Shown here: positions 4,960-28,202 of the stretch, piece by piece
How positions within the stretch are numbered: position 1 is the first letter of the stretch
How the letters are laid out: each line of letters opens with the position of its first letter
Assembly: GCA_963777445.1 (NCBI GenBank)
Contig: CAVZQR010000017.1
Location: forward strand, 197,226 to 261,225
DNA length: 64,000 bases
Source of the DNA: Candidatus Dormiibacterota bacterium
GTDB lineage: Bacteria > Chloroflexota > Dormibacteria > Aeolococcales > Aeolococcaceae
Reading direction: 5' to 3'
The notes under the pieces: model-generated
What the model saw: the letters and a program-made list of their open reading frames with translations, nothing else
What the model was told of the DNA's origin: nothing
Databases searched by the model: none
Position numbers and translations under genes: made by a program

Positions 4960-5919
4960 GTGCATCAGTCCCGGGCGCGGGCTTGTAGACTAGTCCTTAC
5001 GTATAGGCTCAAATACCATATTCGGCGCAGGGCCAAGGCCATTCTTGTAAGGAGGCCGAAGCCAGGTCAGTACAGACGAACGATCGCCTCGTACGCCGAG
5101 TTGAACGAGCTCGTTCACCAGATTGTGTCGCAAGGTCAGCCTGCTCTAGTCAGCAGGATAGGGGCGACGGAACTCGCGTGCGTGAGGCACTTCATGGAGA
5201 GGCGCCAGGGCAGCAGTAAGCCTGCGTACCCCCACCGAGTTGCGTCGCGGATGAGAATGAACGCCGGGTTCTTTCCTGCAACGGACGACTTCCTCGACTC
5301 GTTTTGCCAGAACTATATACGCGCCGCATCGGAAATTGATGTGCTTGGCGTTTGGCGCAATCAGTTCGAGCAGGTGGTGGCGAATGAAGTTTGTCCCACC
5401 GCGCGTCTGGTGCCGCTCCGGGCGCTAGAACCGTATTTCCATCCCGACCCATGGAGCCGGGCTCTGGCCGGAAAGATCGTGTTGGTCGTACACCCCTTCG
5501 CGGATTCCATCCTCGAAAACTACAGGCGCAACCGTCCCCGCATCTTTGCAGACCAGTCGGTGCTGCCACCATTCGACCTCCGACTGATCCGCGCGGTGCA
5601 GTCCATCGCCGGCCAACGGACTGCCTATTTAACCTGGTTCCAGGCGTTGGATGACATGATGAGCCGCATGGATGCTCATCAGTTCGACGTCTGTATTGTC
5701 GGCGCGGGCGCTTACGGTCTGCCCTTAGCTGCCCACGCGAAGCGTGCTGGGAAGGTTGCCATCCATCTCGGAGGCGCGACGCAGATCCTATTCGGCGTCA
5801 GGGGCCGCAGGTGGGACACCGACGACGTGTCGCACTTCTATAACCAATGGTGGGTGCGTCCAACCTCCGGTGAGACACCTTCCGGCGCCCGCTCCGTGGA
5901 GGACGGTTGTTATTGGTGA
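4960..5919 (+). CDS. Conserved-looking protein of unknown function in the glycan locus (possible GT-D/DUF1792-like transferase)
   Basis: 319-aa ORF with GC3-rich codons. Motifs are SRIGATELACVRHF, VLVVHPFADSI and DVCIVGAGAYGLPLAAHAKRAGKVAIHLGGATQILFG, which resembles the GT-D nucleotide-binding region. Start codon is uncertain. The functional call is weak. Confidence 0.55.
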   Translation: MHQSRARACRLVLTYRLKYHIRRRAKAILVRRPKPGQYRRTIASYAELNELVHQIVSQGQPALVSRIGATELACVRHFMERRQGSSKPAYPHRVASRMRMNAGFFPATDDFLDSFCQNYIRAASEIDVLGVWRNQFEQVVANEVCPTARLVPLRALEPYFHPDPWSRALAGKIVLVVHPFADSILENYRRNRPRIFADQSVLPPFDLRLIRAVQSIAGQRTAYLTWFQALDDMMSRMDAHQFDVCIVGAGAYGLPLAAHAKRAGKVAIHLGGATQILFGVRGRRWDTDDVSHFYNQWWVRPTSGETPSGARSVEDGCYW

Positions 5920-6191: not shown

Positions 6192-7439
6192 TCAATCTGC
6201 GTTGCGCATTTCGTGGCGTAAGGTCCACAGCAGATACATGTTGGCAGCGACTGCTGCTCCGAGGAGAGCTAGACTGGCTCCCAATAGACTAAGGGTGGGA
6301 ACCAGCAATCCTGCCAGAACCACTAGCGTAGCAAGCGCGACGATCTCGCCGACCCCAGTTCGGCCGGGGCGCCCAACCCCTTGAAGAAAGACGACGAAGA
6401 TCCGTCGTATACCCATGAAACACCCGGCCAATATGAGCACGCGTGCCGGCGGAACAGCGCCAGCAAAGGCCTCGCCGAAGGCCGCGGGCAGGAGCCATCC
6501 AACAATAGCCTCGCCAACGGCCGTAGATGCAACTGCAAGAGCTCCAGCAAGAAGGAACGCGTGCCTCATGATCGCGTCGCGGGTTTCGCGGTCGGGAGCG
6601 CCGGCCAATCGCGGTAGCGCGATCATTCCGACCCCAGATACGAGAATGCCGGGAAGGTTATCGAACGCGCTCCCGACCGCGTAGAGACCGAGCTCGTAGC
6701 GTGAAAGCAGTAGCCCCACTATGGCCTGATCGATCTGGAGTGTTTCCAAGGGTGCGTTGCCGCCCGCCAATGATGCAAGACCGTACTGGACTAGAGATCG
6801 TGTTGAAACGGCAGTTCGTACGGGAGAGGCGCCAGACGCAGCCGCGAGAAAGATGCCGCCCACCGCACACGCCGTCACGTACGCCGCGGCGTTGATACCG
6901 AGCGCAACGGCTGCCCCCGCATGCCGAACGACGAGCCACAGAACGACAATGCTTACTGCAGTGATCGTCACGAAAACTGGGCGCATCAGGTTCAGCGCTC
7001 GAAAATGGCGCTCCCCCTGCACACACGCAAGTACTAGTTGCGACGTCATCGATGCTGACACGCACACCGCGACCAATGCTGCCTCGACCCATCGCGGTGA
7101 GGAGTTGTCGCTGCGAACGATTAGGATGACCGCGAGAGAGCTTAAGGCACTGGCACCTAGACAGAGGCGCACCCAAGTGGATGCAACCACCCTGAGAATG
7201 TAGCGAGCAGAAACACCTCGGCTCGCCAGCGTGTAGGTGACTGCTGTTGGGAGTCCTGCAGCTCCGAAGAAGCTGCCGAAGGTGGCGATGATGACTAGAA
7301 GCGCGTATTCGCCCCGGCCGCTCACGCCCAACAACCGTGCTGATGCCGGCCCAGACAGAAGCAGCATGCCCTGGGCGAAGATGCTTGTCGCAAGAGATCC
7401 AAGCGATGGGTTACTTAGAATCGACCATCGAATCCTCAA
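6192..7439 (-). CDS. wzx: Polysaccharide/oligosaccharide flippase (Wzx, MOP superfamily)
   Basis: 415-aa multi-TM protein. The N-terminus SLATSIFAQGMLLLSGPASARLLGVSGRGEYALLV is typical of Wzx-type flippases. Located between wzy and glycosyl/acetyl-transferases. Confidence 0.8.
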   Translation of the reverse strand: MRIRWSILSNPSLGSLATSIFAQGMLLLSGPASARLLGVSGRGEYALLVIIATFGSFFGAAGLPTAVTYTLASRGVSARYILRVVASTWVRLCLGASALSSLAVILIVRSDNSSPRWVEAALVAVCVSASMTSQLVLACVQGERHFRALNLMRPVFVTITAVSIVVLWLVVRHAGAAVALGINAAAYVTACAVGGIFLAAASGASPVRTAVSTRSLVQYGLASLAGGNAPLETLQIDQAIVGLLLSRYELGLYAVGSAFDNLPGILVSGVGMIALPRLAGAPDRETRDAIMRHAFLLAGALAVASTAVGEAIVGWLLPAAFGEAFAGAVPPARVLILAGCFMGIRRIFVVFLQGVGRPGRTGVGEIVALATLVVLAGLLVPTLSLLGASLALLGAAVAANMYLLWTLRHEMRNAD

Positions 7440-9632: not shown

Positions 9633-11500
9633 CTAAGGTTTCGTGACCGCCCACTTGCGGTCGACGCTCAGGTCGCTCGTGAACCTGGAGTTGAGACCAC
9701 CGGGTAGCTGCACCTCCACGCTGATCGGCCATGTAAGGGCGTTGATCTGCCGCTCCCATGCGAGCTGGTAGCTCACCGCTCCGTTGGGCACCACGTGCGC
9801 AAAGGGGCCGTCGTACAGAAAGGTCACGGTGGTCGTCTCGCCGACATCGAGAATCAGGTCGTAGGAGACCCACGGGCGGTTGTCCTCTACCCCGAAGTCC
9901 TCCGGGCTCTCCGACTGCGCTGGTGCTCCAGCCTCGCTCACCAGCATATCGTCGAAGTTTGCCGAAGGCGGGAGATACACCCTGATGTAGTCCTCATACA
10001 GCCCGCCGGTGTTGCCAAGAGCGCTGCGTTTGCCGGCGACGGTCTGGGGCGGGTCGTAATAGGTCAGCGTCAACCGATCCTGTACGTCGCCTGCGGATCA
10101 ACGGTCGGCTTGGAGGTCGTAGTGGCGCGTGACGAAGAGATCTCCCTTGGTTCCCGCCAGGTTGGAGTCCGCAACGAGCAGCGCGTCGCCGGTTGGGTGC
10201 TGCGGCAGTACGCCGCCAAGCCCGGCATCGACGACCAGATGCTTCAAGCTGCGCGTCATCGAAGTCGAGCACGATATGCCGCTCCGCCGCGCCCCGCTCG
10301 AGAGCCGTCGCCAGGGCCACCCATTTCTCTCTTGGGGTCTTGAGCGCGGCGTTGACAACGGCATGGCCAAAGGGCGCGAGATATACCTTGCCAGGGTCGC
10401 CCGGGCGCGCCTTGTTGATGATGTAGTTGAGCTCGAGCAACGTGTTGGTCGCGCCGACGACCTGCGGGTATGGCGGCACCTGCACACTCCCGACCACCTG
10501 CAGCACATACGACAGTGCAACCGGGTCAACGTTGATCACGCCATCAACGGACTGACCGGTCGCCCTGCGTGTAGAACTCGGCTGCAAGCGCGGCGGAGGT
10601 CGGGAAATTGGGGGACCAGTTGGAGTCCGAAAGCGACGAGGTTGGTTCCGGTGATCTGCTTCGATGGGTGCCGGAGCGGGAATATCGGTCACGAGCGCAT
10701 CGGAGAACTGCGACATCCATGAAGTTCGAACTCACCAGCTGCCCGTCCTGGAAGACAACGACCCCAACGGCGCCGATGAAGCCGCCACCCCCACGCTCCT
10801 CGCCGGGATTGGTCAGCAGAATGAGGTAGCGATGCGTGCCTGCCCCCACGATGTTCGGCAGTGCTTGGACGATGGTCAAGCCGGCCCGCACGGGGCCGTC
10901 GAGGCGCTGCTGCGCCTGCTGCGCTGCAGCGCGGAGATGATCAATCGGCCCGAAGAGCGAGCCGCTCGGGACTGCGCGACACCGAACTGTCCAGCGCTGT
11001 CGAGATCGGCCAGCGCTCGGCTGATCGCTGCGTGCTCGGTGTTGCCCAGCGACGCGAGCTCCTTGATCACGCCGGAGCCGCCGCTCGCGGCGCCGCTGTG
11101 CAGGTTCTGGAGCAACGGGATGAGGTCGATCGCCAGGTTGGTCCCGTCCTCGCCCGCGTGCCGTAGGTCGCGCACCGCGGCAACCTGCCGATCGAACCAG
11201 GGAAGATGGCCGACCACTCCGGCGATCCACCCGTTGTCGATCGACCGAGGAGCGGCCGCCGAAATCGAGCTTCGCGTCCTCGAGCTGTTTCTTTGCGGCG
11301 GTGAGCTGATCAGACGTGGGATCGAGGCCTGCGGTCCTCAGGATCGCCTCGGCGCTGAGGACGTCCGTGCGGCCCTGCTGGAGCGCGTTGTAGGCGGGGA
11401 GGTAGCGGACGAGGAGCACGACCATCACCGCGGCGACCAGGACGCCGATGCCGCCGCGAGATACCGAGCGTCCAGCGCCTCGACAGCGGCCAGCGCACAC
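9633..11500 (-). pseudogene. DUF4012 domain membrane/surface protein, at least six frame changes plus one in-frame TGA
   Basis: N-terminal TM segment GIGVLVAAVMVVLLV, then DUF4012 hallmarks spread over three frames: THRYLILLTNPGEERGGGGFIGAVGVVVFQDGQL, SDSNWSPNFPTSAA, VDGVINVDPVALSYVLQVVGSVQVP, LVADSNLAGTKGDLFVTRHY, LTLTYYDPPQTVAG. Frame changes lie near 11235, 10960, 10718, 10670, 10560 and 10240. There is an in-frame TGA at 10098-10100. Confidence 0.75.
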
Positions 11501-11567: not shown

Positions 11568-12206
11568 TCACGCAGACTGGTTGGCCGCGAGCCTCCCTGG
11601 ATCGAACCGCTTGGTCCGCACCGCATAACCGGTGAAGAGCGCAGCACCCACGCCCATCACACCGACGAGCCAACCACCGCCAGTCGGTGGCAGCGGGCTG
11701 CCGGCAGAGAGGAGCGCCGCCGTGGTGGTCGCGGTCTTCGAGCAGGTGATCCGAATCACGGTGTGATGGCTGGCCTTCTCGCCCTTCTCAGTCGCAGTGA
11801 TGGTTGCCAAACCGCAGTACTTGCCGCTGGCCTGGAATGTGCCAAACGCCTTGTCGTTCTTCCCGATGACGGCGCACGAGTCGGCTCCGGTCCCGACTGA
11901 ACCGGCCTTGGCAGGGCTGACGCTGAAGCACACGTGCTGCCCGGCCAAGTCCTTTCCGCCCTTGACGTGCTGGTCAACAAAGGTCACCCGGCATTGGCCG
12001 TGGTCTTCGGCCACGTGGCCGGGACTGCAGTCCACCCGCTCGTGCTTGTGGGGCTTCGAGGAGGTCTGGGGGGTCGCGGCAACGGCCGTGAGAGCGGTGG
12101 TTCCCTGGGATGCAGCGAACACGTTAACGCTCCCCAGTGACAGTGTGAGAAAGCCTCCGGCCACGATAATGGGGGCCAGGAGGGCGGTACGTGCCGCTCG
12201 CATCAT
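11568..12206 (-). CDS. Sortase-anchored (LPXTG) surface protein with a Cys-rich Ig-like body
   Basis: Signal peptide MMRAARTALLAPIIVAGGFLTLSLGSVNVFA. The C-terminal sorting signal is LPPTG + GGWLVGVMGVGAALFTGYAV + RTKR. The body (CRVTFVDQHV...GQHVCFSVSP...ATITATEKG) looks like a bacterial Ig-like (Big_1-type) domain with six Cys. Confidence 0.75.
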   Translation of the reverse strand: MMRAARTALLAPIIVAGGFLTLSLGSVNVFAASQGTTALTAVAATPQTSSKPHKHERVDCSPGHVAEDHGQCRVTFVDQHVKGGKDLAGQHVCFSVSPAKAGSVGTGADSCAVIGKNDKAFGTFQASGKYCGLATITATEKGEKASHHTVIRITCSKTATTTAALLSAGSPLPPTGGGWLVGVMGVGAALFTGYAVRTKRFDPGRLAANQSA

Positions 12207-12393
12207 CTTGAGTCCCGACCCTCCTGTGAGCCTTCCAGCGGTTAGTCCCGCAGGATAACAGGCGCGTCCACAAATGTGCAATCCGCGCAGACATCTCGGG
12301 GGAAACGAGGGGTCGCGACATCTGCTAGGCTCTCGCCCGCGCGGGCCACGCGGCCGTCATTCTGGACAGCAAACTCGCGAAGAGGGTGGCTCA

Positions 12394-15300
12394 ATGACGC
12401 CGGGGCTGGAAGGGACCAGGATCGCGCGGTGCTCTGTGGGAGCTCTTGGCGTTGCGCTTTTGGCGAGTGGGCTCACGTTCGTCAGCCCAGTGACGGTAGC
12501 GGCAGGCGCCTCGTTGACCTGGGCGGCGCCGGTACGGGTCGATAACCAGCCGCAATTCTCCGGCCCCTTCTATTACAGCGTGTCGTGCCCGAGCACGGGG
12601 TTCTGCGCTGCGGTCTCGGACGGGGGCGACGTGATCACCTCCGCCAACCCAACCGGAGGGGCGTCGGCCTGGACGGTCACTCATATCGATGGGACGAGTC
12701 AGACGCTGTTCGGCGTGTCCTGCACCAATAGCGGTCTCTGCGTCGCCGTCGGCGACGGGGGCGACTTGGTGACCTCCACCGACCCGACTGGTGGCGCGTC
12801 GGCCTGGGCGCTCAACTACGTCGATGTCCACGGCCTTAAGGGCGTGTCCTGCCTGACAAGCGGCCTGTGCGTCGCGGTGGACGACGCCGGGAACGTGGTC
12901 ACCTCCACCAACCCCATGGGCGGAGCGTCGGCCTGGACGCTCGCGAACGTGGACGGCACACATGCTCTGGCCGCCGTGTCCTGCCCCACCGCGACCCTCT
13001 GTGTCGCCACCGACGACGCCGGCAACGTGGTCACCTCCACCAACCCCACTGGCGGTGCGTCGGCCTGGACGGTGTCCAACGTCGACGGCACGAACAAGGT
13101 CACCGGGGTGTCCTGTCCCAGCAGCTCCTTCTGCGTCGCCGTGGACGGCAACGGCAACGTGGTCACCTCCACCAATCCGACCGGTGGAGCGACAGACTGG
13201 ACGCCCGCCAACGTGAATGGCACGAATCTCATCTACGGGATCTCCTGTTTCAGCGCGACCCTCTGCGTTGCGGGTGAGATCAGCGGCCAGATCCTGACGT
13301 CCACCAACCCGACCGGCGGCCCGTCGGCCTGGACAGGGTTCGACGCCAACACCAAGGGCGAATCCGTCATCGGGGTGTCCTGTCCGAGCAGCAGCCTGTG
13401 CGTTGCGGCGGACTTTGTGGGCGATGTGCTCACCTCCACCAACCCCACGGGGGGTAGCGGGTCCTGGACCACGGCAACCGTCAACGGCACCGACCACCTG
13501 GGCACGGTGTCGTGTCCCAGCAGCAGCCTCTGCGTCGCGGGAGATGGCAGCGGCAACGTGGTGACCTCCACCAACCCAACCGGCGGAGCCGGAGCCTGGA
13601 CGGTCACCAATGTGGACGGCTCGCCCAAACTCCTCGGGCTGCAAGGCTTGTCGTGTCCCACGGCCAGTCTCTGCGTCGCAGTTGACGACAACGGCAACGT
13701 GGTCACCTCAACCAACCCAGCCGGGGGTGCATCGGCTTGGACCGTGACCAACGTCGACGGCTCCAATGACATGCGCGCGGTGTCGTGTCCCACAGCCACG
13801 CTTTGCGTCGCCTCGGACAGCCAGGGCAACGTGATCACCTCCACCAACCCGACCGGCGGCGCCGGGGCGTGGACGGTGGCGAACGTGGACGGGTCCAACA
13901 CACTGTGGTCCATCTCGTGTCCCACAACCAGCCTCTGTGTCGCGGTTGACACCACGCAGGGTGGTGACGTCGTGACCTCCACCAACCCCACCGGGGGGGC
14001 GGCAGCATGGACCGTCTCCTCCACCCTGGGCCTCAAGGGCCCAGGTGTTGCCGGCGTTTCCTGTCCCAGCACCACCCTCTGCGTGGGCGTGGCGGCCGAC
14101 TCCGTCGTGACCTCGAGTAATCCCACAGGCGGAGCATCTGCATGGCAGGTTACCCCGAGCGTGGACAACTCCAACGGTGGTATGGACGGCATCTCCTGTC
14201 CGAGCAGTGGGTTCTGCGTCGCCGTCGACACGAGCGGCAACGTGGTCACGTCCAGCAACCCTGCGGGTGGGGCGGCGGCCTGGACGCGGACCAACGTGGA
14301 TGGCTCCACCGGTGATCTGATGGGCGTGTCCTGTCCGAGCACTGGTCTCTGCGTCGCGGTGGACAACATCAGCGGCAACGTGGTCACCGGGAGTGCAGTT
14401 GGTCCACGCGCATTCACCGCCTATGTGACCAACGCCAGTTCCGGCAGCCTGAGCCCGATTGACACATCGACCAATATCGCGGGCACCACAATCCCGGCGG
14501 GCTCCGGCCCATCCGCAATCGCCATCACACCGGACGGCAAGACCGCATACGTGACGAACCCCGCCGGTGACGTCGTCACCCCGGTCGATCTGGCCACCAA
14601 CGCCGCCGGAAGCCCGATCACAGTCGGCACGAGGCCATACGGCGTCGCCATCACGCCCGACGGAAAGACCGCGTACGTCAGCAACGCCACCTCCAACAAT
14701 GTCATTCCCATCAGCATCGCCACCAACACCGCCGGCAGTGCCATCGGGGTTGGCACCACGCCATACGGCATCGCGGTCACGCCCGACGGCAAGACCGCCT
14801 TTGTCGCAAATTACGGGTCGAATACGGTGACTCCGATCACTGTCGCCACCAACACCCCCGGCGGTGCCATCACCGTGGGTCAGGGACCGATCGGCATCGC
14901 AATCACCCCGAACGGCAAGACCGTGTACGTGGCCAATTACAACGCAGATTCGGTGACCCCGATCGACGTTGCGACCGGCCTTGCCGGAGCCGCGATCAAC
15001 GTGGGCGCATATCCCTATGCCATTGCCGTCACTCCGGACGGCGTGACCGCCTACGTCGCCAATCGTGGCGGCGCGAACGTCACCCCGATCAATGTGGCCA
15101 CCGACACCGCGGGCAGCGCCATCACCGTTGGTGCCCAGCCCTTCGCGATCGCGATCACCCCAGACGGCACGACTGCCTATGTTGTCAACGAGCTCTCGGA
15201 CACCGTCACCCCGATTACCGTCGCAACGAATACCCCCGGCACCGCCATCCCGGTGGGCGTGAATCCGTCAGGCATCGCCATCACCCCGGACGAGGCCCCG

Positions 15301-17817
15301 GTGGCAGCGATGTCGGTGACTCCGGCTCAGGCGGGCTCGCCGACCGGATTTGACGCCGCCGCATCGACCGTGGCGTACGGAACCATCACCTCGTACGCCT
15401 GGAACTTCGGCGACACGACCACGACCACGACGGCCACACCGACCACCACGCACACGTACGCGGCCTCCGGCAACTACACCGCGAGCGTCACCGAGACCGA
15501 CTCAACCGGAACGTCGACGGCGCAGGTGTTCACCGGGCAGACGGTGAGCCGCAACGGCGGTCCTGGCGCAACCGCAACCCGGGCGTTCACGGTCCCGGCG
15601 GTGCCGCTTCCGTTGAAATGGGCTGCCCCCGTGCCTGTCGACATCCACCCCACGTACGGGGACCCCAACTTCTTGACTGGCGTGTCCTGCCCCACCGCGA
15701 CCCTCTGCGTCGGGGTTGACCAGTCCAGCAATGTCGTGACGTCCACAAGCCCAACCGGAAGCGCGACGGCCTGGAAGGTGACCAATGTGGACAGTGGCAA
15801 CCTCTCCCTGACCGGGGTCTCCTGTCCCAGCGCGACCCTCTGCGTCGCGACTGACGGTCCCGGCGGCAACGTGCGGGGCAACGTGGTGACCTCCACCAAC
15901 CCAACCGGTGGGGCGTCGGCGTGGAAGGCGGCACAGGTGGATGCCATCAACACCATCCTCAACGGCGTGTCCTGCCCCACCACGACCCTCTGCGTGGCCG
16001 GCGACCAGAACGGCAATGTGCTGACATCCATCAAACCCACCGGTGGAGCGGCCTCCTGGAAGATCACTCACCTTGACGGTACCAACAGCATCACCGGCGT
16101 CTCGTGTCCCAGCGCCACGCTGTGCGTCGCCGTCGACAACGTCGGTGACGTGCTGACCTCCACCAAGCCCACGAGTGGGGCCGCGGGCTGGACGGTGACC
16201 CCCGTGGACAGCCTGAATAGCCTGAGCGGTGTGTCGTGCCCGAGCGCGACACTCTGCGTCCTCGCGGACGGCGCCGGCAACGTCGTGACGTCGGCGAAAC
16301 CCACGGGCGGCGCCATCGCCTGGACGCGGTCGGCCGTGGACCCTGGCAACGCGATGTCAGGCGTGTCGTGTCTGAGCACGGGACTCTGCGTCGCCATTGA
16401 CAGCTCGGGCGACGCGATCACCTCGACCAACCCCACGGGCGGGGTGCCGGCCTGGACGGTGAACCAGGTCGACACCAGGACCCAGACGCTGACGGGCGTG
16501 GTCTGTCACAGCGCAACCCTCTGCGTCGCCGTGGACGGCGCCGGAGACGTGGTCACCTCCACCAACCCAACCGGCGGCGGGGCAGCCTGGAATGTGACCA
16601 ACGTTGACGGTCTCACCGACGTGACCGATGTGTCCTGTGTCACCCCCAGTCTCTGCGTCGCGGTGGACGATGCGGGCAACGTGGTCACCTCCACCAACCC
16701 CACTGGTGGCGTGTCGGCGTGGAAGGTCACCCATGTGGACCTCGGCAGCCCCACCAATCCGTTGACCGGCGTGGCCTGCCCGAGCGCCTCGCTGTGCGTG
16801 GCGACCGATGGTCCCGGCCCCGGGGGTGGCAACGTGGTCACCTCCACGAATCCAACTGGCGGGGCATCGGCCTGGACGGTGAGCAATATCGATGGGACCA
16901 CCCTGCTCACGGGCGTGTCGTGTCCGACCATCAATCTCTGTGTCGCGGTGGACACCCAGGGCAATGTGCTCACCTCGACCAACCCGGCCGGTGGGACGTC
17001 CGCGTGGGTCGCGAGCAACGTGGACGGGTCGGTCCCGCTGAGCGGCGTGTCCTGTCCAAGCGCCGGCCTGTGCGTTGCCGTCGACGCCAACGGTGACGTG
17101 CTCACGTCAACCGACCCGACCGGGTTTGCAACGTGGACGGTCGCCGGCGTCGACGGCGCCGGGCCCCTGGTGGGCGTGACCTGCCCCGGTACCGGTCTCT
17201 GTGTCGCGACCGACGGTGCCGGCGACGTGGTCACATCGACAAACCCGAACGGCGGGGTGGCGGCGTGGAATGTGGCGAACGTCGATGGCACGCAGTCGCT
17301 GATGGGTGCGTCATGCGCCAGCGCGAGCTTCTGCGTCGTCCTGGACCAGGGCGGCAACGTGCTCACCTCCAGCAACCCCACCGGTGGGCCGTCGGCCTGG
17401 ACGACGACCTTCGTCGACGGCGCTCTCGGCTCCTACGGCTTCCCGGAGGGCGTGTCGTGTCCGAGCAGCGCGCTCTGCGTCTTCGGTGATACCCGAGGCA
17501 ACCTGGTGACCGGTACTGGCACGGTGACCAGCAGCATCACCGTCACCGCGCCGTCGACCGGCACGTCCTGGGTGCGTGGAACCTCCCATCCGATCACATG
17601 GTCGTCCGCGGGAAGCCCCGGAGCGCACGTGAAAATCCAGCTTCTCAAGGCCGGGAAGGTCGTGTCGACAATCGTTTCCTCGGTGCTGACGTCGGCCGGC
17701 ACCTTCACGTGGAAGATTCCCGCTGCGCTCGCTCTCGCCACCACGTATCAGATCAAGATCGTGTCGACCACGACCACCTCGATCTTCGGGCTCTCAGGCT
17801 ACTTCTCTGTCACCTGA
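12394..17817 (+). CDS. Giant secreted multi-propeller protein: signal peptide - 14 Cys-x5-Cys blades - 7 YVTN blades - PKD - 14 Cys-x5-Cys blades - C-terminal Ig-like (Kre9/KNH-like) domain
   Basis: Uninterrupted 5.4-kb frame. The start was chosen at ATG 12394 (MTPGLEGTRIARCSVGALGVALLASGLTFVSPVTVAAG) behind GAGGGTGG. Repeat consensus is VSCPSxxLCVAVDxxGNVVTSTNPTGGASAWTVxNVDGxxxLxG. YVTN units read ...ITPDGKTAYV(T/A)N. PKD domain is SYAWNFGD...HTYAASGNYTASVTETD. C-terminus is ITVTAPSTGTSWVRGTSHPITWSS...TYQIKIVS. Confidence 0.9.
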   Translation: MTPGLEGTRIARCSVGALGVALLASGLTFVSPVTVAAGASLTWAAPVRVDNQPQFSGPFYYSVSCPSTGFCAAVSDGGDVITSANPTGGASAWTVTHIDGTSQTLFGVSCTNSGLCVAVGDGGDLVTSTDPTGGASAWALNYVDVHGLKGVSCLTSGLCVAVDDAGNVVTSTNPMGGASAWTLANVDGTHALAAVSCPTATLCVATDDAGNVVTSTNPTGGASAWTVSNVDGTNKVTGVSCPSSSFCVAVDGNGNVVTSTNPTGGATDWTPANVNGTNLIYGISCFSATLCVAGEISGQILTSTNPTGGPSAWTGFDANTKGESVIGVSCPSSSLCVAADFVGDVLTSTNPTGGSGSWTTATVNGTDHLGTVSCPSSSLCVAGDGSGNVVTSTNPTGGAGAWTVTNVDGSPKLLGLQGLSCPTASLCVAVDDNGNVVTSTNPAGGASAWTVTNVDGSNDMRAVSCPTATLCVASDSQGNVITSTNPTGGAGAWTVANVDGSNTLWSISCPTTSLCVAVDTTQGGDVVTSTNPTGGAAAWTVSSTLGLKGPGVAGVSCPSTTLCVGVAADSVVTSSNPTGGASAWQVTPSVDNSNGGMDGISCPSSGFCVAVDTSGNVVTSSNPAGGAAAWTRTNVDGSTGDLMGVSCPSTGLCVAVDNISGNVVTGSAVGPRAFTAYVTNASSGSLSPIDTSTNIAGTTIPAGSGPSAIAITPDGKTAYVTNPAGDVVTPVDLATNAAGSPITVGTRPYGVAITPDGKTAYVSNATSNNVIPISIATNTAGSAIGVGTTPYGIAVTPDGKTAFVANYGSNTVTPITVATNTPGGAITVGQGPIGIAITPNGKTVYVANYNADSVTPIDVATGLAGAAINVGAYPYAIAVTPDGVTAYVANRGGANVTPINVATDTAGSAITVGAQPFAIAITPDGTTAYVVNELSDTVTPITVATNTPGTAIPVGVNPSGIAITPDEAPVAAMSVTPAQAGSPTGFDAAASTVAYGTITSYAWNFGDTTTTTTATPTTTHTYAASGNYTASVTETDSTGTSTAQVFTGQTVSRNGGPGATATRAFTVPAVPLPLKWAAPVPVDIHPTYGDPNFLTGVSCPTATLCVGVDQSSNVVTSTSPTGSATAWKVTNVDSGNLSLTGVSCPSATLCVATDGPGGNVRGNVVTSTNPTGGASAWKAAQVDAINTILNGVSCPTTTLCVAGDQNGNVLTSIKPTGGAASWKITHLDGTNSITGVSCPSATLCVAVDNVGDVLTSTKPTSGAAGWTVTPVDSLNSLSGVSCPSATLCVLADGAGNVVTSAKPTGGAIAWTRSAVDPGNAMSGVSCLSTGLCVAIDSSGDAITSTNPTGGVPAWTVNQVDTRTQTLTGVVCHSATLCVAVDGAGDVVTSTNPTGGGAAWNVTNVDGLTDVTDVSCVTPSLCVAVDDAGNVVTSTNPTGGVSAWKVTHVDLGSPTNPLTGVACPSASLCVATDGPGPGGGNVVTSTNPTGGASAWTVSNIDGTTLLTGVSCPTINLCVAVDTQGNVLTSTNPAGGTSAWVASNVDGSVPLSGVSCPSAGLCVAVDANGDVLTSTDPTGFATWTVAGVDGAGPLVGVTCPGTGLCVATDGAGDVVTSTNPNGGVAAWNVANVDGTQSLMGASCASASFCVVLDQGGNVLTSSNPTGGPSAWTTTFVDGALGSYGFPEGVSCPSSALCVFGDTRGNLVTGTGTVTSSITVTAPSTGTSWVRGTSHPITWSSAGSPGAHVKIQLLKAGKVVSTIVSSVLTSAGTFTWKIPAALALATTYQIKIVSTTTTSIFGLSGYFSVT
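12571..14400 (+). repeat. Coding tandem array 1: 14 units of ~126-141 bp (42-47 aa Cys-x5-Cys blades)
   Basis: I counted 14 consecutive units, each starting (V/I/L)SC and containing TS(T/S)NP(T/A)GG. The core gtggtcacctccaccaaccc recurs many times. The array is preceded by the lead-in LTWAAPVRVD. Confidence 0.85.
14401..15294 (+). repeat. Coding array of 7 YVTN-family beta-propeller units (~43 aa each)
   Basis: Seven repeats of the form xVTPIxVATNTAGxxIxVGxxPxGIAITPDGKTAYVxN. Confidence 0.85.
15295..15606 (+). other. PKD domain segment of the giant protein
   Basis: SPTGFDAAASTVAYGTITSYAWNFGDTTTTTTATPTTTHTYAASGNYTASVTETDSTGTS matches the PKD WxFGDG...HxY...G.Y.V.L.V.D pattern. Confidence 0.75.
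15669..17520 (+). repeat. Coding tandem array 2: second set of 14 Cys-x5-Cys blade units
   Basis: 14 units counted. The array is preceded by LKWAAPVPVD, the same lead-in as array 1, and ends GNLVTGTG (array 1 ends GNVVTGS). This indicates duplication of the whole module. Confidence 0.85.
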
Positions 17818-17849: not shown

Positions 17850-18923
17850 TCAGCCTGGACCGGCTCCAACCGCGTCCTCTGCCCGAGGCATCTCGAACCG
17901 GAACAGCGACGCGCCGGTCAGGTTGTAGCGGCGCCGGGCGAAGAGGTAGCAGACCCAGCCGATGACGGTGTTCACGCCCTTGTCGGCCAGGCGCTGGATC
18001 ACCGAGATCGCGGTCGCGATATCGAAGCTGATGCCGAGCAGGACGAGCAGCCCCGCGGTGCTCGCCTCCACGGCGCCGAGGCCTCCCGGCGAGAAGCTCA
18101 GCCACGCCGCCCCCTGGGTCACCGCATAGACAAAGCCGGCGCTCGTCCAGCTCAGCTTGCCGGGGTCGACCGCCTCCGCGACCGCCCAGAGCAGGCTCAC
18201 CGCCATGACCGCCTGGGCAACGCTCAACGGCAGGTATCGATACGTGTCGGGATGCCGGAAGAGCACCCGCGTGTCGCGTTGCAGGTCGTCCACCGCGGGG
18301 CGGATCCGCTTGAGCACCGGAACCCGCCCGATGATGCGGCGCACCCGCGCGTACAGCCGCTCGACGGTGAGGATCGCCACGATCGCGACCACGAAGAGCA
18401 TCGGCACGATCACCGCGATGGCGATGAGATGCATGCCCAGCGCCCGGGGGAGTGCGAGCGCGAAGAGCATGAACACGAACAGCAATTCCTGCACGGTCTC
18501 ACTGGCCACCACGGAGCCGAGATGCACCGACGCCGCTTTGGCCAGGAGCAGCGCTCGGGTCAGCTCGCCGAGCGGCAGCAGCGCCGTCGCCTGCCCGGTC
18601 TCGGTGAGAAACACCGTGTCCAGCAAGGGGAATTTGATGCCGAGCGCGCGGTTGAGCGTCCACCAGCGCACCCCCTGGACGATGTAGAAGCCGACCGCCA
18701 GCGCGACGACAATCGGAATGTAGACGAGGTTGAATCGCTGGAATGCAATCCCGATCTTGTGAGGATCCGCATACACGAGCAGCGCCGCGATCGCCCCGAG
18801 GGCGAGCAGCAGCGGGAGATACGCCAGCCAGCGCCGCCACGAGCGGCGCGCAACATTGGACGCATCCTGATCCTGCCCGGCTCGCGAGCGTGGCTCGTCG
18901 GGACGGGCAGCCTCCGTCACCAC
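17850..18923 (-). CDS. UPF0104 / lysyl-phosphatidylglycerol-synthase-TM-like (flippase-like) membrane protein
   Basis: 357-aa polytopic protein: ...LLLALGAIAALLVYADPHKIGIAFQRFNLVYIPIVVALAVGFYIVQGVRWWTLNRALG...SPGGLGAVEASTAGLL. This is the typical UPF0104 layout. Confidence 0.75.
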   Translation of the reverse strand: MVTEAARPDEPRSRAGQDQDASNVARRSWRRWLAYLPLLLALGAIAALLVYADPHKIGIAFQRFNLVYIPIVVALAVGFYIVQGVRWWTLNRALGIKFPLLDTVFLTETGQATALLPLGELTRALLLAKAASVHLGSVVASETVQELLFVFMLFALALPRALGMHLIAIAVIVPMLFVVAIVAILTVERLYARVRRIIGRVPVLKRIRPAVDDLQRDTRVLFRHPDTYRYLPLSVAQAVMAVSLLWAVAEAVDPGKLSWTSAGFVYAVTQGAAWLSFSPGGLGAVEASTAGLLVLLGISFDIATAISVIQRLADKGVNTVIGWVCYLFARRRYNLTGASLFRFEMPRAEDAVGAGPG

Positions 18924-18953
18924 GCAACCGATGGTATGCGCAGTGGCCGCAAT

Positions 18954-19835
18954 TCAGTCCGGCGGCGAGCCTCCGGGCCAGGGCAGCGCCGCGAAGCCGA
19001 TCGTCCCCGGCCCCGTGTGCGCGCCGAAGATCGGGCTCAGCGCGAGGCTCTCGCAGCGCACCGCGTGCACCGCCTGCTGGAGATGTTCCGCCAGCTCGGC
19101 GGCCTCGTCGGGCGCGTCCGCATGGAAGACCATCAGCCACTGGGGGCCGGGGCCAAGCTCGTCGACGGCGACGCGCTCCAGTTGGCGGATCGCGCCACCG
19201 GCGGTGCGGGTGAGGGCCACCCTGCCGGTGTTCCCGCCCTCGACGAGCCGGAAGACGGGACGGACCCGGAGCGTATTGGAGATGCCCGCAAGCAGCGCCG
19301 GCACCCGCCCGGTGCGGGCCACATAGGTCAGGGTGGCCAGGGCTCCGTAGACGCGGACCTGGTCGCACGCCGCACGGACCGCCGCCGTCCAGGCCTCCGC
19401 GTCGGGCGCCGTCTCGGCGAGGTACGCGGCGCAGCGGGCGATCAGCGAATACCCCGCCACGGCCGTGCCGGTATCGATGACCGTGACCCGGCGCCGGCCC
19501 TCCTCCGCCTCGAGCATCCCGGCGGCGAGGTTCGCCGTCGAGTGCATCGCGCTCCAGCGCTCGGGGATCGTGAGGCAGAGCACGGTCTCGGCATCGCACC
19601 GCCGGAAGGCCTCGAGGTACGCGCCCGGCGATGGCGTCGAGGTCGCGGTCGCCCCGCCGCCGCGGAGGAGCGTGTAGAAGGCCGCGTACGCCTCGGTGTT
19701 CCCGTCATCGACGAACTCGCGGGCTCCGACCGTGATGCGCTGGGGCACCACGGCGACGCCGCGCTCCAGGTCCTCCTGCAGCGCGGCACCGCCGTCGACG
19801 ACGAGCGCTCGATCCCTCAACGTCCTCTCCCGCAC
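18954..19835 (-). CDS. DegV-family fatty-acid-binding protein
   Basis: ALVVDGGAALQEDLERGVAVVPQRITVGAREFVDDG...STPSPGAYLEAF...VLCLTIPERWSAMHSTANLAA...VTVIDTGTAVAGYSLI follows the DegV pattern. The start was taken at GTG 19835; the ORF-track ATG at 19949 would run into plsY. Confidence 0.75.
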   Translation of the reverse strand: MRERTLRDRALVVDGGAALQEDLERGVAVVPQRITVGAREFVDDGNTEAYAAFYTLLRGGGATATSTPSPGAYLEAFRRCDAETVLCLTIPERWSAMHSTANLAAGMLEAEEGRRRVTVIDTGTAVAGYSLIARCAAYLAETAPDAEAWTAAVRAACDQVRVYGALATLTYVARTGRVPALLAGISNTLRVRPVFRLVEGGNTGRVALTRTAGGAIRQLERVAVDELGPGPQWLMVFHADAPDEAAELAEHLQQAVHAVRCESLALSPIFGAHTGPGTIGFAALPWPGGSPPD

Positions 19836-19859
19836 CCAAGCCGCATGATTGGCGGAATC

Positions 19860-20550
19860 ATGATCTCCCCATGGGTTGTGGCGGCCTGGTGCGTGGCCGC
19901 CTACCTCATCGGCGCGCTGCCGGTCGGGCTGGCTGCTGGTGCGCCGCAAGCGCTACGGGCTCGACCTGCGCAACTTCGGCACCGGCAACATCGGCACCAG
20001 CAACGTGTACCGGCACGCGGGCATCGACATCGCGGTGATCGTCGGCCCGCTCCAGTTCGTCCAGGGATTCGCGCCGGTGCTGGCCTCGCGCCTGCTGGGG
20101 CTGCCGCTGAGTGCGAGCATGCTCATCGGGGTCTGCACGGTGGCCGGCAACGGGTGGCCGGTCTATCTGCGCTTCAACGGCGGGCGCGGGGTGGCGGTCG
20201 CCACCGGGGCCGTGGCGGCGCTCTCCGTCGCCGGGCTGATCGCGCTCCTGATGTGCTTCGCCTGGGGCGCGATTCGCGGCCGGATCGCACTCGCGGTGCT
20301 GGTCGGCTTCGTCCTGCTCCCGGCGGTCGCGTTCGCGTTCGGCGGGTCGGAGGGCTGGATCCTCGGCACTGGTTGCCTGGCGATCCTGGCGCTGCTCCTG
20401 CTCCGTCGCCTCGAGGGGCTCCCCCGCGACGCGCGTGTGTACGGCCACTTCTGGCGGCGCGTGTACCAGCGTCTGGTGTTCGACGAGCGCCCGGGCCGGC
20501 CGCTCATGGGCCCGCGCACCGACCACAACGCGGACTCGCTGCCCCGCTGA
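19860..20550 (+). CDS. plsY: Glycerol-3-phosphate acyltransferase PlsY, one frame change near 19928
   Basis: MISPWVVAAWCVAAYLIGALPVG (frame of ATG 19860, alternative ATG 19845) joins after a 1-nt shift to LLVRRKRYGLDLRNFGTGNIGTSNVYRHAG...NGWPVYLRFNGGRGVAVATG, the PlsY signature (ORF 19876-20550). Confidence 0.85.
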
Positions 20551-20566
20551 CGCGTCTCCTCGACCG

Positions 20567-21388
20567 TCAGCGCTGGTAGATCTCGCCGAACGGGTACCAC
20601 CACTCCGGGTTGCGCCGGATCGCCGCCTCCAGCCCGGTCGCGATGCGCTGGGTCACGACGGCGTCTGTGTCTCCTGGTTCGATGACCAACGGCGGGTGCA
20701 CCACCAGCCGGTAGCGTCCGCCGAGCGACAGGCATTCGACCGGCATCACCGGCACCTTCGCCACCCGCGCCAGCCACGCCGCGGCGGTGCTGAACTCCAC
20801 CCTGCCGCCGCAGAAGTCGACGGTCACGGTGTCGCCGCGATCGGGGATGTCGCTGAGGATGGCGGCGAACCTGCCCCGGCGCACCGCGCGGATGAGGCCG
20901 CGCGCCGCGTTCGACGACACCAGCACCTCGAGGTCCTGGCGCCGCCGCGCCCAGGCCGCGATCCTGGTCACCAGGTCCGGACCCACCGGCGCCATCACCG
21001 CCGTGACGCGCAGCCCCGAGGCGAACCCGCACGCTGCGGCGACGTCCCAGCTGCCGAAGTGGGCAAGCGCGAACACTCCCCCACCGTGCTCCTCCAGCGC
21101 CGCGTCGGCATGCCCGAGCCCGTAGGCGCGGAAGTGGCGATGCATCGCCTGCGGCGGTACCCCGTACTGCCAGACGAAATCCACCGAGGTGCGCGCGTAG
21201 TTGCGGAATGAGGCGAGCGCTCGGCGTTGCGCGCCGCGGCGATCGAGCGTCGGGTCGAGCACCCGGTGATTGGCGGCACAGCGCCGGCGGCTCGCGGGTG
21301 AGCCGGCGTAGATGCAGGCGCCGATGACGTCGCCCAGGGCATACCGGCCCGATCCGAGCATCCTCAGGCCGAGGCTTGCCGTCCACAT
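20567..21388 (-). CDS. Lysophospholipid/lipid-A-type acyltransferase (LpxL/HtrB-PatA family)
   Basis: Start MWTASLGLRMLGSG at 21388. HX4D catalytic motif in FALAHFGSWDVAA. ...ILSDIPDRGDTVTVDFCGGRVEFSTAAAWLARVAKVPVMPV is typical of the family. Confidence 0.8.
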   Translation of the reverse strand: MWTASLGLRMLGSGRYALGDVIGACIYAGSPASRRRCAANHRVLDPTLDRRGAQRRALASFRNYARTSVDFVWQYGVPPQAMHRHFRAYGLGHADAALEEHGGGVFALAHFGSWDVAAACGFASGLRVTAVMAPVGPDLVTRIAAWARRRQDLEVLVSSNAARGLIRAVRRGRFAAILSDIPDRGDTVTVDFCGGRVEFSTAAAWLARVAKVPVMPVECLSLGGRYRLVVHPPLVIEPGDTDAVVTQRIATGLEAAIRRNPEWWYPFGEIYQR

Positions 21389-21435
21389 GCCGGCGCGGAG
21401 CGCTCTCGAAGGGGGCTCGAGCACTGCCTCCGGCG

Positions 21436-22443
21436 TCAAAGCACCTTGCGGGCCTGGTCGGGCTGGAGCGCGACGTGGTGCTTGGCGATGATCTCGCGCA
21501 CCGTGCCGCTCTGCGCGCGCATCACCAGGCTGTGGGTCTCCGCCCACCAGTTGTGGTAGCGGACGCCGCGCAGGAGTCCCCCACCGCTGATGCCGGTCAC
21601 CGCCACGGCCACCTCGCGTCCGGGCACGAGCCGTTCCATGCTCAGCGACGCTTCGGGGTCGTACCCGGCCTCGCGCATCGCCGCTGCCTCGTCCTCGTGG
21701 CGCACCCACGGACGGCATTGCAATTCGCCGCCGAGGCAGCGCATCGCGCACGCGGCGACGATCGCCTCGCGCGTCCCGCCCGACCCGATCATCACGTCGA
21801 TGCCGGAGCCGGGCCAGGCGGCCATCATGGCGAGGCCGACGTCGCCGTCACTGACGATGGCAACCCGGGCCCCCAGCGCGCGCAGCCGCTCGAGGAGCGC
21901 CTGGTGGCGCGGCCGGTCGAGCAGGACGACGGTGAGGTCCTGCACCTGCACGTTCATGGCGAAGGCCACCCGGCGGAGGTTGTTCTCCGGGGTGTCACTG
22001 ATGTCGACGGCGCCGCGCGCCTGCGGGCCGACAGCGATCTTGTGCATGTAGGCGACCGGCGGCGGCAGCAGGATGCCCCCCGTCTCAGCGACGCACGCGA
22101 CGCTGAGCGCCTGGCTCAGCCCACCCGCAACCAGGCTGATGCCGTCGACGGGCAGCACCGCGAGGTCGACGCGCTCCCGGCCGGCCCCGATGGTCCGGCC
22201 CGCGACCAGGCGGTTGTTGGAGCCCTCCGGACCGATGACGATCCGGCCCTCGAAGGGCATGGTGGTGAGCGCCTCCTCCATCACCGCCTGGCCGGCCTCG
22301 CGGGTGCCGGCCTTGTCACCGCGTCCGAGCCAGCGTCCCACCGAAAGTGCCGCGGCCTCGGTTGCGCGCAGCAACTCGAGGCCGCGGTTCCGCCCACGGG
22401 TCAACTTCTCGGCGGACGATAGGCCGCGCGCTGCCGTGCTCAT
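21436..22443 (-). CDS. glpX: Class II fructose-1,6-bisphosphatase
   Basis: LELLRATEAAALSVGRWLGRGDK...VLPVDGISLVAGG...YMHKIAVGP...IVSDGDVGLAMMA...IDVMIGSGGTREAIVAACAMRCLGGELQ is the full-length GlpX pattern. Confidence 0.9.
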   Translation of the reverse strand: MSTAARGLSSAEKLTRGRNRGLELLRATEAAALSVGRWLGRGDKAGTREAGQAVMEEALTTMPFEGRIVIGPEGSNNRLVAGRTIGAGRERVDLAVLPVDGISLVAGGLSQALSVACVAETGGILLPPPVAYMHKIAVGPQARGAVDISDTPENNLRRVAFAMNVQVQDLTVVLLDRPRHQALLERLRALGARVAIVSDGDVGLAMMAAWPGSGIDVMIGSGGTREAIVAACAMRCLGGELQCRPWVRHEDEAAAMREAGYDPEASLSMERLVPGREVAVAVTGISGGGLLRGVRYHNWWAETHSLVMRAQSGTVREIIAKHHVALQPDQARKVL

Positions 22444-22461
22444 CGCCAGCAGCGTACCCGG

Positions 22462-25494
<3,033 letters not shown>

Positions 25495-25527
25495 TCACGC
25501 CGACGCACCGATGTTCGAAAGTCAGCG

Positions 25528-26142
25528 TCAGCCGGCTCTCGCCTCGAGGAAGACGACCCGGGTCTCATCGGTCTCGCCCGTTGATCCGGTGAGGACGAGT
25601 CGGGGTTGCGGCTCCCAGGCCCCTTCGGCGAGGCCCATCTCCTTGGCGAACTTGCCGACGGGGTCGAACTCGCCTCCTTCAGCGGCGCCGAAGCGGGCCG
25701 GCACGACGATGCTCGGCTCCACGGCGTTGACGAGCTTGGCGGCGTCGATGGCGCCGAGCGCGTCGCCGCCACCGACGGGGATGACCAGGACGTCGACGTG
25801 GCCGAGACTGTCGATCTCGTCCTCGGTGAGCTGCCGCCGGAGGCGCCCGGCGGCGACCACGCGCACGTCGTCGAGCGCGATCCGCATGACCGTCGTCTCT
25901 CCGGCCGCGAGCCCGAGGATGCCCACACCGCCGATCTCGAACTCACCGGGACCAGCGACCTCCTGGAGCTCTCCCTCGCGCGGGCGCAGCGTTGCGGGAT
26001 CGGTGGCGCCCTCGGTGCGGACGATCAGGCCGACCGTCCCCTTGGCGAGCCCGGGCAGCGCCGTCTGGGGTGGATCGATGACGACCGTGATCTCCTTGCC
26101 GCGAAGCCGGATGCACGAATGGCCGTGATATGTCAGTTCCAT
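25528..26142 (-). CDS. UPF0173-like metal-dependent hydrolase (MBL fold)
   Basis: MELTYHGHSCIRLRGKEITVVIDP... with ...VDVLVIPVGGGDALG. The size (204 aa) and N-terminus are typical of the UPF0173/YtkL family. Confidence 0.7.
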   Translation of the reverse strand: MELTYHGHSCIRLRGKEITVVIDPPQTALPGLAKGTVGLIVRTEGATDPATLRPREGELQEVAGPGEFEIGGVGILGLAAGETTVMRIALDDVRVVAAGRLRRQLTEDEIDSLGHVDVLVIPVGGGDALGAIDAAKLVNAVEPSIVVPARFGAAEGGEFDPVGKFAKEMGLAEGAWEPQPRLVLTGSTGETDETRVVFLEARAG

Positions 26143-26170
26143 GCGAGCCCAGTGTGCCGCCTCGGGGCCA

Positions 26171-28182: not shown

Positions 28183-28202
28183 TGCTCGGGACTGCTCGCA
28201 GG

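Follow-up and report, generated by a model that had tools for sequence, protein, structure and literature searches.

The Asp-box, S-x-D-x-G-x-T-W, is located between strands 3 and 4 of a β-propeller blade (PMC2716378). The tryptophan-docking motif of the PQQ dehydrogenases and BamB reads AX[D/N]XXTG[D/E/K]XXW, in which the glycine and the tryptophan are invariant and the tryptophan opens strand D; BamB binds BamA through its D-A loops (PMC3506653). Tachylectin-2 consists of five blades, with a GW motif in loop D-A forming sugar pockets and a tryptophan that anchors a short helix (PMC8023676). The tachylectin and PQQ families have been placed together, joined by a conserved G...W in the C-D loop (Pereira & Lupas; PMC8023676), and highly repetitive tachylectin-like propellers have been reported in Actinobacteria (Pereira & Lupas; PMC9218822). 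Here, these systems are compared with a gene found in 64,000 nucleotides from Candidatus Dormiibacterota bacterium (GCA_963777445.1, contig CAVZQR010000017.1, positions 197,226 to 261,225 of the forward strand), a stretch referred to as the window. The gene lies in an open frame at 12274 to 17817 (+), and its ATG at 12394 gives a product of 1,807 amino acids, named here the five-propeller protein.

With moderate confidence, the five-propeller protein is viewed as a non-enzymatic, multivalent extracellular binding scaffold of an adhesin or lectin-like kind, probably for glycans or envelope polymers. Its cysteine-containing blades are read here as a very abundant and uncurated lineage of their own, placed within the propeller superfamily on the side of the PQQ and tachylectin families; this lineage is not of the Asp-box type and is a member of neither named family.

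Architecture and predicted fold

The initial annotation had delimited 14 cysteine units, seven YVTN units, a PKD domain, 14 further cysteine units and an immunoglobulin-like (Ig-like) domain, an inventory that is borne out by regular-expression, Pfam and NCBIfam searches. Exactly 28 C-x5-C units are found by regular expression, 14 at residues 63 to 667 and 14 at residues 1097 to 1709. The mature protein contains 56 cysteines, all of them in such pairs, and a 57th (C13) is located in the signal peptide. A hidden Markov model (HMM) made from the units recovers 28 domains with 1622 bits, which places the repeat far beyond chance, and the five-propeller open reading frame (ORF) is its only match in the window. 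At the protein level, the blades are 40–79% identical to one another (mean ~57%).

Units 14 and 28 are incomplete, each being a half unit that breaks off behind strand C (GNVVTGS and GNLVTGTG). The lead-ins preceding the two modules, LTWAAPVRVD and LKWAAPVPVD, align with the absent second half of a unit (SAWTVTNVD). From this alignment, the N-terminal lead-in is predicted to give strand D to the C-terminal half unit in a classic velcro closure; with the half unit completed in this way, each module comprises 14 whole blades. Lead-in 1 (residues 40–62; 12511 to 12579, +) is the putative displaced strand D closing module 1, forms short strands in the structural model and corresponds to an LxWxxPxxxD motif of the family. 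Module 1 follows at residues 63–667 (12580 to 14394, +) with 13 full units and one half unit. Lead-in 2 (residues 1071–1096; 15604 to 15681, +) is assigned the same role for module 2 from the alignment to the second half of a unit and from the model of module 2, which spans residues 1097–1709 (15682 to 17520, +) and again has 13 full units and one half unit.

This layout is shared by the family. The family consensus consists of a signal peptide, LxWxxPxxxD, 14 units and a closing VSCPxxxLCVAxDxxGxVxxGT. Among 329 retrieved proteins, array length peaks sharply at 14 (111 arrays), and the family genes in the loci that were fetched have 14 units each, with one scored as 15. Insertions and deletions are confined to the B-C and D-A loops.

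An AlphaFold2 (AF2) model of module 1, built with 61 sequences, has a mean predicted local distance difference test (pLDDT) score of 93.2 and a predicted template modelling (pTM) score of 0.83, with four strands per unit. The model of module 2 with the C-terminal domain has a pLDDT of 85.9, the propeller part being mostly above 90. When both models were compared with the PDB using Foldseek, the best matches were tandem 7+7 double propellers, aligned over ~670–720 columns with a TMq of up to 0.67 at ~10% identity. These include Utp21 (4nsx), Aip1 (1pgu; 1nr0, 'Two Seven-Bladed Beta-Propeller Domains'), Gemin5 and the 14-blade WRAP (2ymu). PorZ (5m11) is also among the matches; 1nr0, 4nsx and 5m11 were matched by module 2. 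Structure prediction of module 1, which had been suggested as a check, thus returned a confident propeller model with tandem 7+7 structures as its closest matches. Together with the match of the YVTN part to PDB entry 1l0q, the models support the earlier proposal that 14+7+14 blades form five seven-bladed propellers in one chain, where the split of each cysteine module into two rings rests on the fold matches.

The region between the modules begins with a YVTN-type seven-bladed β-propeller (residues 668–960; 14395 to 15273, +), identified by NCBIfam TIGR02276 (seven YVTN repeats, 134.7 bits, cut-off 27.85) and the Pfam Lactonase/YNCE models. It is followed by a PKD domain (residues 961–1050; 15274 to 15543, +), which is matched at residues 967–1046 by PF18911 (52.4 bits, cut-off 27) and PF00801 (38.9 bits, cut-off 23.5). 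Residues 676–1052 match 1l0q, a structure composed of a YVTN propeller and PKD, with E=6e-55, and this match extends through the PKD domain. The C-terminal Ig-like domain is of the Kre9_KNH type (residues 1720–1806; 17551 to 17811, +); PF10342 scores 44.9 bits (cut-off 24.6) over profile positions 2–94 of 94, and the C-terminus was read directly. The AF2 model of this part is poor, as the alignment depth is too shallow there. Two further Pfam scores were dismissed as noise. Beta-prop_EMC1_N reaches a whole-protein score of 39.2 (cut-off 34) as a sum over repeats, with no single stretch above the cut-off, and the sCache_3_2 score stems from a 32-position fragment.

As 1l0q is a fragment of a Methanosarcina surface-layer protein, an alternative role has to be weighed, namely that of a structural envelope protein, which would assemble with itself through its propellers into an S-layer-like or sheath lattice and would not bind foreign ligands. 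This alternative draws on the homology of the central 377 residues and on the properties of a large, secreted protein that lacks an enzyme domain. It is nevertheless considered unlikely, mainly for the reasons given in the section on genomic context.

Coding signals and export

A Shine-Dalgarno-like, purine-rich sequence, GAAGAGGGTGG, was read directly at 12379 to 12389 (+), 4–14 nucleotides 5' of the ATG at 12394. The GC content at third codon positions of the gene is 0.84 and alike in all domains, so that the frame is clearly coding. The stop codon is located at 17815–17817 (+).

The first ~39 residues (12394 to 12510, +) form a Sec-type signal peptide with a basic n-region, a hydrophobic core at residues 15–33 and a VAA/GA cleavage region. 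A signal peptide is also present at the start of the family consensus. No other 19-mer of the protein is as hydrophobic as this core (mean Kyte-Doolittle value 1.85), which is also the sole strongly hydrophobic segment; no second one was found outside residues 15–33. C13 is preceded by an arginine, so the signal peptide is without a lipobox. A sequence scan found no L[PA]x[TAS]G motif anywhere in the protein, and no anchor signal follows the Ig-like domain at the directly read C-terminus. Pfam and NCBIfam scans revealed no enzyme domain. The earlier description of a secreted protein with neither an anchor nor an enzyme domain is thus upheld by the Pfam scan and by the hydrophobicity and motif scans.

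The cysteine pair

Both cysteines of the unit are invariant in family alignments. Among 240 relatives, the pair is present in ~2,158 of 2,188 anchored blades; of the 30 exceptions, those listed as examples mostly stem from false anchors placed outside blades. In 94% of blades the two cysteines are spaced by x5, and spacings from x2 to x14 are seen with both cysteines retained. Such tolerance is as would be expected of a pair that clamps the base of the A-B hairpin. Furthermore, the even number of cysteines in a secreted protein is consistent with disulfides, and one predicted intra-blade disulfide per blade, located on strands A and B, is plausible.

A caveat comes from the structural model, in which the strand register is ambiguous. 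In nine of the 14 modelled blades, DSSP assigns VSCPS and LCVAVD to strands separated by a two-residue turn, and the register pairs S5 with L8, P4 with C9 and C3 with V10. The two cysteines are then diagonal and point to opposite faces of the sheet. In the remaining five, no strand covers the residues from the first cysteine (or the one next to it) to L8. Disulfides between neighbouring blades might be formed as well, linking the strand A cysteine of one blade to the strand B cysteine of the next. A test based on the pattern of cysteine loss gave no information, as true blades virtually never lose a cysteine. The initial suggestion of one disulfide per blade therefore stands in part: it agrees with the invariant pair and with the retention of both cysteines despite changes in spacing, and the register of most modelled blades sets the two cysteines diagonally.

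The C-D loop and the placement of the blades

The loop S-T-N-P-T-G-G-x-S-A-W had been described as degenerate and Asp-box-like. It occupies the same place between strands C and D, but it is three residues longer than an Asp-box, and the distance from serine to tryptophan is 10 rather than 7. None of the 28 units matches the Asp-box pattern [ST]x[DN]xGx[TS][WFY]. In the model, a helical turn takes the place of the 8:8 hairpin of the Asp-box. The Pfam models for BNR, Sortilin-Vps10 and PSII_BNR have no match in the five-propeller protein (E<=1) or in 60 relatives (E<=0.01). The Asp-box assignment is therefore abandoned in favour of the tryptophan-docking spacing of PQQ/BamB propellers, as the pattern [ASTG]x[DN]xx[TGS]GxxxW is matched by 21 of 26 complete blades (0.47 expected in shuffles). 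In this register, N is at position 3, G at position 7 and W at position 11, and in the AF2 model strand D begins with the tryptophan. The strict consensus AX[D/N]XXTG[D/E/K]XXW is matched by no blade, with G at position 6 and A at position 8.

The docking loop, by which PQQ dehydrogenases and BamB are recognised, also bears on a possible enzymatic function. In that case, a catalytic cleft or a site for a cofactor would be built by the double propellers, on the pattern of PQQ dehydrogenases, GH74 double-propeller glycosidases or lactonases. GH74 enzymes consist of two seven-bladed propellers, a two-propeller layout that is shared by the modules, and the Pfam model Lactonase matches the YVTN part. 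The latter match is a generic signal of YVTN propellers, which is also obtained with the non-enzyme 1l0q. The high identity among the blades leaves little room for blade-specific catalytic residues, the rings are modelled with seven blades against eight in PQQ dehydrogenases and BamB, and profile searches of the PDB returned no enzyme chain, whether of PQQ, GH74, sialidase or another kind. An enzymatic role is thus judged to be very unlikely.

The affinity to the tachylectin and PQQ families becomes apparent among the relatives. Tachylectin (PF14517, cut-off 29.8) is matched over nearly the full model length by the close relatives P0006 (54.9 bits), P0045 (45.5 bits) and P0008 (42.5 bits), and PQQ_2 reaches 32.1 bits (cut-off 27.6) in P0066. 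In a separate scan of 60 relatives, weak Pfam matches are scattered at E<=0.01: Tachylectin in 13, EMC1_N in 11, PQQ_2 in 7, DUF6242 in 6 and Tectonin in 5. Two results count against the placement of the blades near these families. In the five-propeller protein itself, the Pfam Tachylectin and PQQ models find no match even at E<=1. In addition, hhalign of the family profile against the single sequence of Escherichia coli BamB gives a non-significant E=0.62, with the docking motif as the sole aligned segment, and the control against the single sequence of YncE gives E=0.54.

Searches of the PDB with the whole protein, a module profile, a blade profile and relative P0006 found no sequence match to the cysteine blades, and the 1TL2 chain was not recovered by the family profile. 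A literature search with motif strings returned no relevant paper. The initial annotation had not recognised the unit as a named repeat family, and the searches agree, as neither Pfam, NCBIfam nor the PDB yielded a match that covers the cysteine blades.

Origin of the modules and integrity of the gene

It had been proposed that an entire 14-blade module was duplicated within the gene. This proposal is not sustained. The shared ends of the modules, on which it drew, are present in both, but they reflect the family consensus, the lead-in being the strand D of the half unit and occurring family-wide. Unit i of module 1 is 56.8% identical to unit i of module 2 and 56.9% identical to the other units of module 2 at any offset, so no cognate-unit signal is seen. 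The modules are 54.5% identical to each other, and modules in other proteins are closer: module 1 shares 62% with P0006, 58.6% with P0012 and 56.5% with P0008, and module 2 shares 56.7% with P0006. The modules are old paralogues, joined either by a long-past duplication or by fusion.

The separate cassettes are common. Single-module proteins of 650–1,100 amino acids occur alongside proteins of 540–700 amino acids that combine a 'YVTN family beta-propeller protein' with PKD. Two-module proteins are represented by P0121 and P0123, in which InlB-B-repeat-like domains are located between the modules. The only retrieved relative uniting cysteine modules with YVTN and PKD is P0128, in the order module-module-YVTN-PKD. 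In metagenome contigs, the 80 loci that best match the junction of module 1 and YVTN include no ORF that contains both cysteine blades and YVTN. A junction search of the protein database likewise found no protein with both, although its matches are all <=1,100 amino acids and long fusions may escape. A search of genome contigs with the whole protein gave partial matches of the PKD/YVTN pattern only and no orthologue. From these searches, the fusion of cysteine modules with YVTN and PKD appears to be rare.

Could the fusion or the 28-unit array be an artefact of repeat mis-assembly, or of errors joining adjacent genes? Sequence errors are certainly present in the window. Relative to the syntenic contig L054, frameshifts were located between 19860 and 27247, namely twice in the Trypsin/PDZ gene (26177–27247), in PyrG at ~23960, in a 394-amino-acid gene at ~23095 and in PlsY at ~19926. 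The DUF4012 gene (9994–11500, -) is split into two overlapping ORFs (9994–10716 and 10544–11500), probably by a frameshift error. With at least five frameshifts in housekeeping genes, an unpolished long-read assembly seems a better explanation than pseudogenes. Indel errors, however, break ORFs and do not fuse them, and the 5.4-kb ORF is intact. As DNA, the units are 67–79% identical, and no exact repeat is longer than 32 nucleotides, which makes collapse or expansion of the array unlikely. Furthermore, each array consists of the 14 units usual in the family, with a proper lead-in and closure, P0128 independently joins two modules with YVTN and PKD, and the domain junctions contain no stop codon, intergenic spacer or internal signal peptide, as expected of a true domain fusion. 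An artefact is thus extremely improbable.

Genomic context

Exact sequence look-up of the five-propeller protein, with two choices of start, and of the GlpX protein encoded in the window retrieved no record. GlpX (21436–22443, -) is 77–83% identical to proteins of Candidatus Dormibacteraeota/Dormibacteria and 88–93% identical to metagenome proteins. By this measure the window probably comes from Dormibacterota (candidate phylum AD3) and not from Actinomycetota, to which most named family members belong. A synteny block is common to the window (17850–31223) and two Mb-scale metagenome contigs, L054 (1232–17501) and L056 (1232–18020). It comprises UvrA, UPF0182, Lactamase_B, Trypsin/PDZ, PyrG, GlpX, acyltransferases, DegV and LPG_synthase_TM. 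The homology of the window to both contigs ends at 17868, beside the stop codon of the five-propeller gene. Past LPG_synthase_TM, L054 has a 443-amino-acid PQQ_2 propeller and L056 a 413-amino-acid gene, followed by Rv1265_N in both; this slot is variable. As the homology ends at 17868 and the gene is absent from the two syntenic relatives, the five-propeller gene is accessory, located at the edge of a variable region that was probably acquired.

These observations bear on the S-layer alternative. Absence from two relatives whose GlpX is ~90% identical is unexpected for a core component of the envelope, and the relatives of the protein occur in several paralogous copies, some of them in tandem, whose partner domains differ. 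A further candidate partner is the gene at 11568–12206 (-), which is divergent from the five-propeller gene and encodes a sortase substrate of 212 amino acids with a signal peptide, 8 cysteines and a C-terminal LPPTG followed by a hydrophobic segment and a basic tail; it has no Pfam match. A sortase-anchored protein in this position would suit a lattice, but no homologue is found beside other family members, and the LPPTG neighbour was rejected as an anchoring partner.

The first 10,000 nucleotides of the window have a lower GC content (60–62% compared with 66–73% elsewhere) and contain glycan genes, including a sulfotransferase (3426–4511), a GT-D-like glycosyltransferase (4960–5919) and a Wzx-like polysaccharide transporter, or flippase (6192–7439). 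This block is probably an acquired surface-glycan island, and its glycan is possibly sulfated. The position of the five-propeller gene next to a glycan locus, noted in the initial annotation, is thus correct for the window, but the context is not kept among relatives.

In three contigs of one study series, L046 (1–9832), L048 (1–9787) and L050 (1–9616), a MacB/FtsX-type ABC transporter precedes single-module relatives. L046 and L048 also contain DUF2600, L048 and L050 contain Peptidase_S8, and integrase or transposase genes follow. These contexts could represent an island-borne secretion or processing setting. The combination of MacB/FtsX, DUF2600 and Peptidase_S8 was not accepted as a conserved context, since it recurs in these three contigs only.

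Proposed role

In the favoured reading of a binding scaffold, the protein would be exported by the Sec pathway as an anchor-less mature protein of ~1,770 residues. Each of the two cysteine modules would fold as a tandem 7+7 double propeller whose ends meet in one blade, with the S-layer-type YVTN propeller and PKD placed between the double propellers and the Ig-like domain last. The tryptophan-docking C-D loop ([S]x[N/D]xxGGxxxW) would glue neighbouring blades, and after export they would be locked by the tryptophan girdle and by the stabilising disulfides that the cysteine pairs most likely form. All length variation falls in the B-C and D-A loops. These share one face of each propeller, which would be a variable binding face; BamB contacts BamA by its D-A loops. 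The variable loops of the four cysteine propellers and of the YVTN propeller would thereby make up a platform for multivalent binding. Glycans or envelope polymers are suggested as ligands by the tachylectin affinity of the family, by the PASTA, ricin-type and Ig-like partner domains and by the neighbouring glycan genes.

Some observations weaken the scaffold proposal. The variable loops are poorly conserved among relatives, with a consensus of mostly 'x', which fits diverse ligands but equally the lack of a specific site. Moreover, no conserved operon partner was found, and the neighbourhoods of family members differ among the fetched loci.

A bolder version of the proposal would define a new propeller class, in which a tryptophan-docking girdle is combined with a disulfide ring, perhaps between blades, and 28 tachylectin-like pockets make the protein a predicted, extremely multivalent lectin for the (possibly sulfated) glycan of the adjacent acquired locus. 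This version is speculative and unlikely. If it were true, a family of >9,000 clusters, from Actinomycetota and Dormibacterota of soil, would gain a function.

Family size and significance

An exhaustive HMMER search identified 9,419 cluster representatives (50% identity) at E<=1e-3, and 2,107 at E<=1e-30. The members are nearly all labelled 'hypothetical protein', and those with a named source derive from metagenome-assembled genomes of Mycobacteriales, Solirubrobacteraceae, Streptosporangiaceae and other Actinomycetota. In relatives, the blades are accompanied by Ig-like surface modules, by PASTA or by a ricin-type domain.

Individual members vary in layout. P0130 (1,947 amino acids) has ~700 amino acids of non-propeller sequence N-terminal to the module and numerous Ig-like repeats C-terminal to it, and P0129 (2,062 amino acids) has degenerate cysteine blades with C-x8 to C-x10 spacing. 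Locus L051 (3174–9822) contains two tandem family genes encoding 1,053 and 1,134 amino acids, with 14 cysteine units each. The family thus expands by local gene duplication, as seen in this tandem pair.

The blade type represents one of the larger protein families without a curated model or structure, and it occurs in abundant soil lineages. A domain definition that includes the signal peptide, the strand-D lead-in, 14 blades as 7+7, the cysteine pair and the tryptophan-docking loop would enable databases to annotate thousands of proteins. For the little-known Dormibacterota, it also opens a way into their extracellular biology. The five-propeller fusion itself is a curiosity more than a new mechanism.

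Comparison with known propellers

The Asp-box (BNR) propellers, such as the sialidases, GH74, sortilin Vps10 and Ycf48, resemble the cysteine blades in having an S-x-D/N...W loop between strands 3 and 4 and an aromatic residue that opens strand 4. The likeness to PQQ/BamB-type propellers (PQQ_2, PF13360) goes further and includes the 11-residue register of the C-D loop, the tryptophan opening strand D, a proline in strand A and the extracytoplasmic location. PQQ dehydrogenases and BamB form an eight-bladed ring, whereas the cysteine modules have strictly 14 blades, modelled as 7+7. The cysteine blades further differ in having G instead of T at position 6, A instead of D/E/K at position 8 and an invariant cysteine pair in each blade.

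With tachylectin-2 (PF14517), they share the character of highly repetitive secreted propellers, a blade length of 44–47 amino acids and a G...W C-D loop with a short helical turn. Tachylectin-2 has five blades rather than 7+7 and lacks the cysteine pair. The D-A loop of the cysteine blades reads VDGxxxLxG and is without the GW motif of tachylectin-2. The position of the tryptophan also differs, as it anchors the short helix in tachylectin-2, while in the cysteine blades it follows the helical turn and opens strand D.

The tandem 7+7 propellers Aip1, Utp21, Gemin5 and WRAP are alike in arranging 14 consecutive blades as two seven-bladed rings. Here the likeness is one of fold, at ~10% identity, and the WD motif is absent from the cysteine modules; the Pfam model WD40 has no match in the five-propeller protein or in 60 relatives. 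The fold matches are cytoplasmic or nuclear proteins with the exception of PorZ (5m11), a bacterial surface protein composed of two propellers and a C-terminal β-sandwich. As a natural, strictly 14-bladed and highly repetitive double propeller, the cysteine module provides a comparison for WRAP and tachylectin in studies of protein evolution.

The clearest homology is to the S-layer fragment 1l0q of Methanosarcina mazei, which corresponds to the central 377 residues and has the same order of propeller and PKD. In the five-propeller protein, this YVTN-PKD cassette is located between two double propellers made of cysteine blades.

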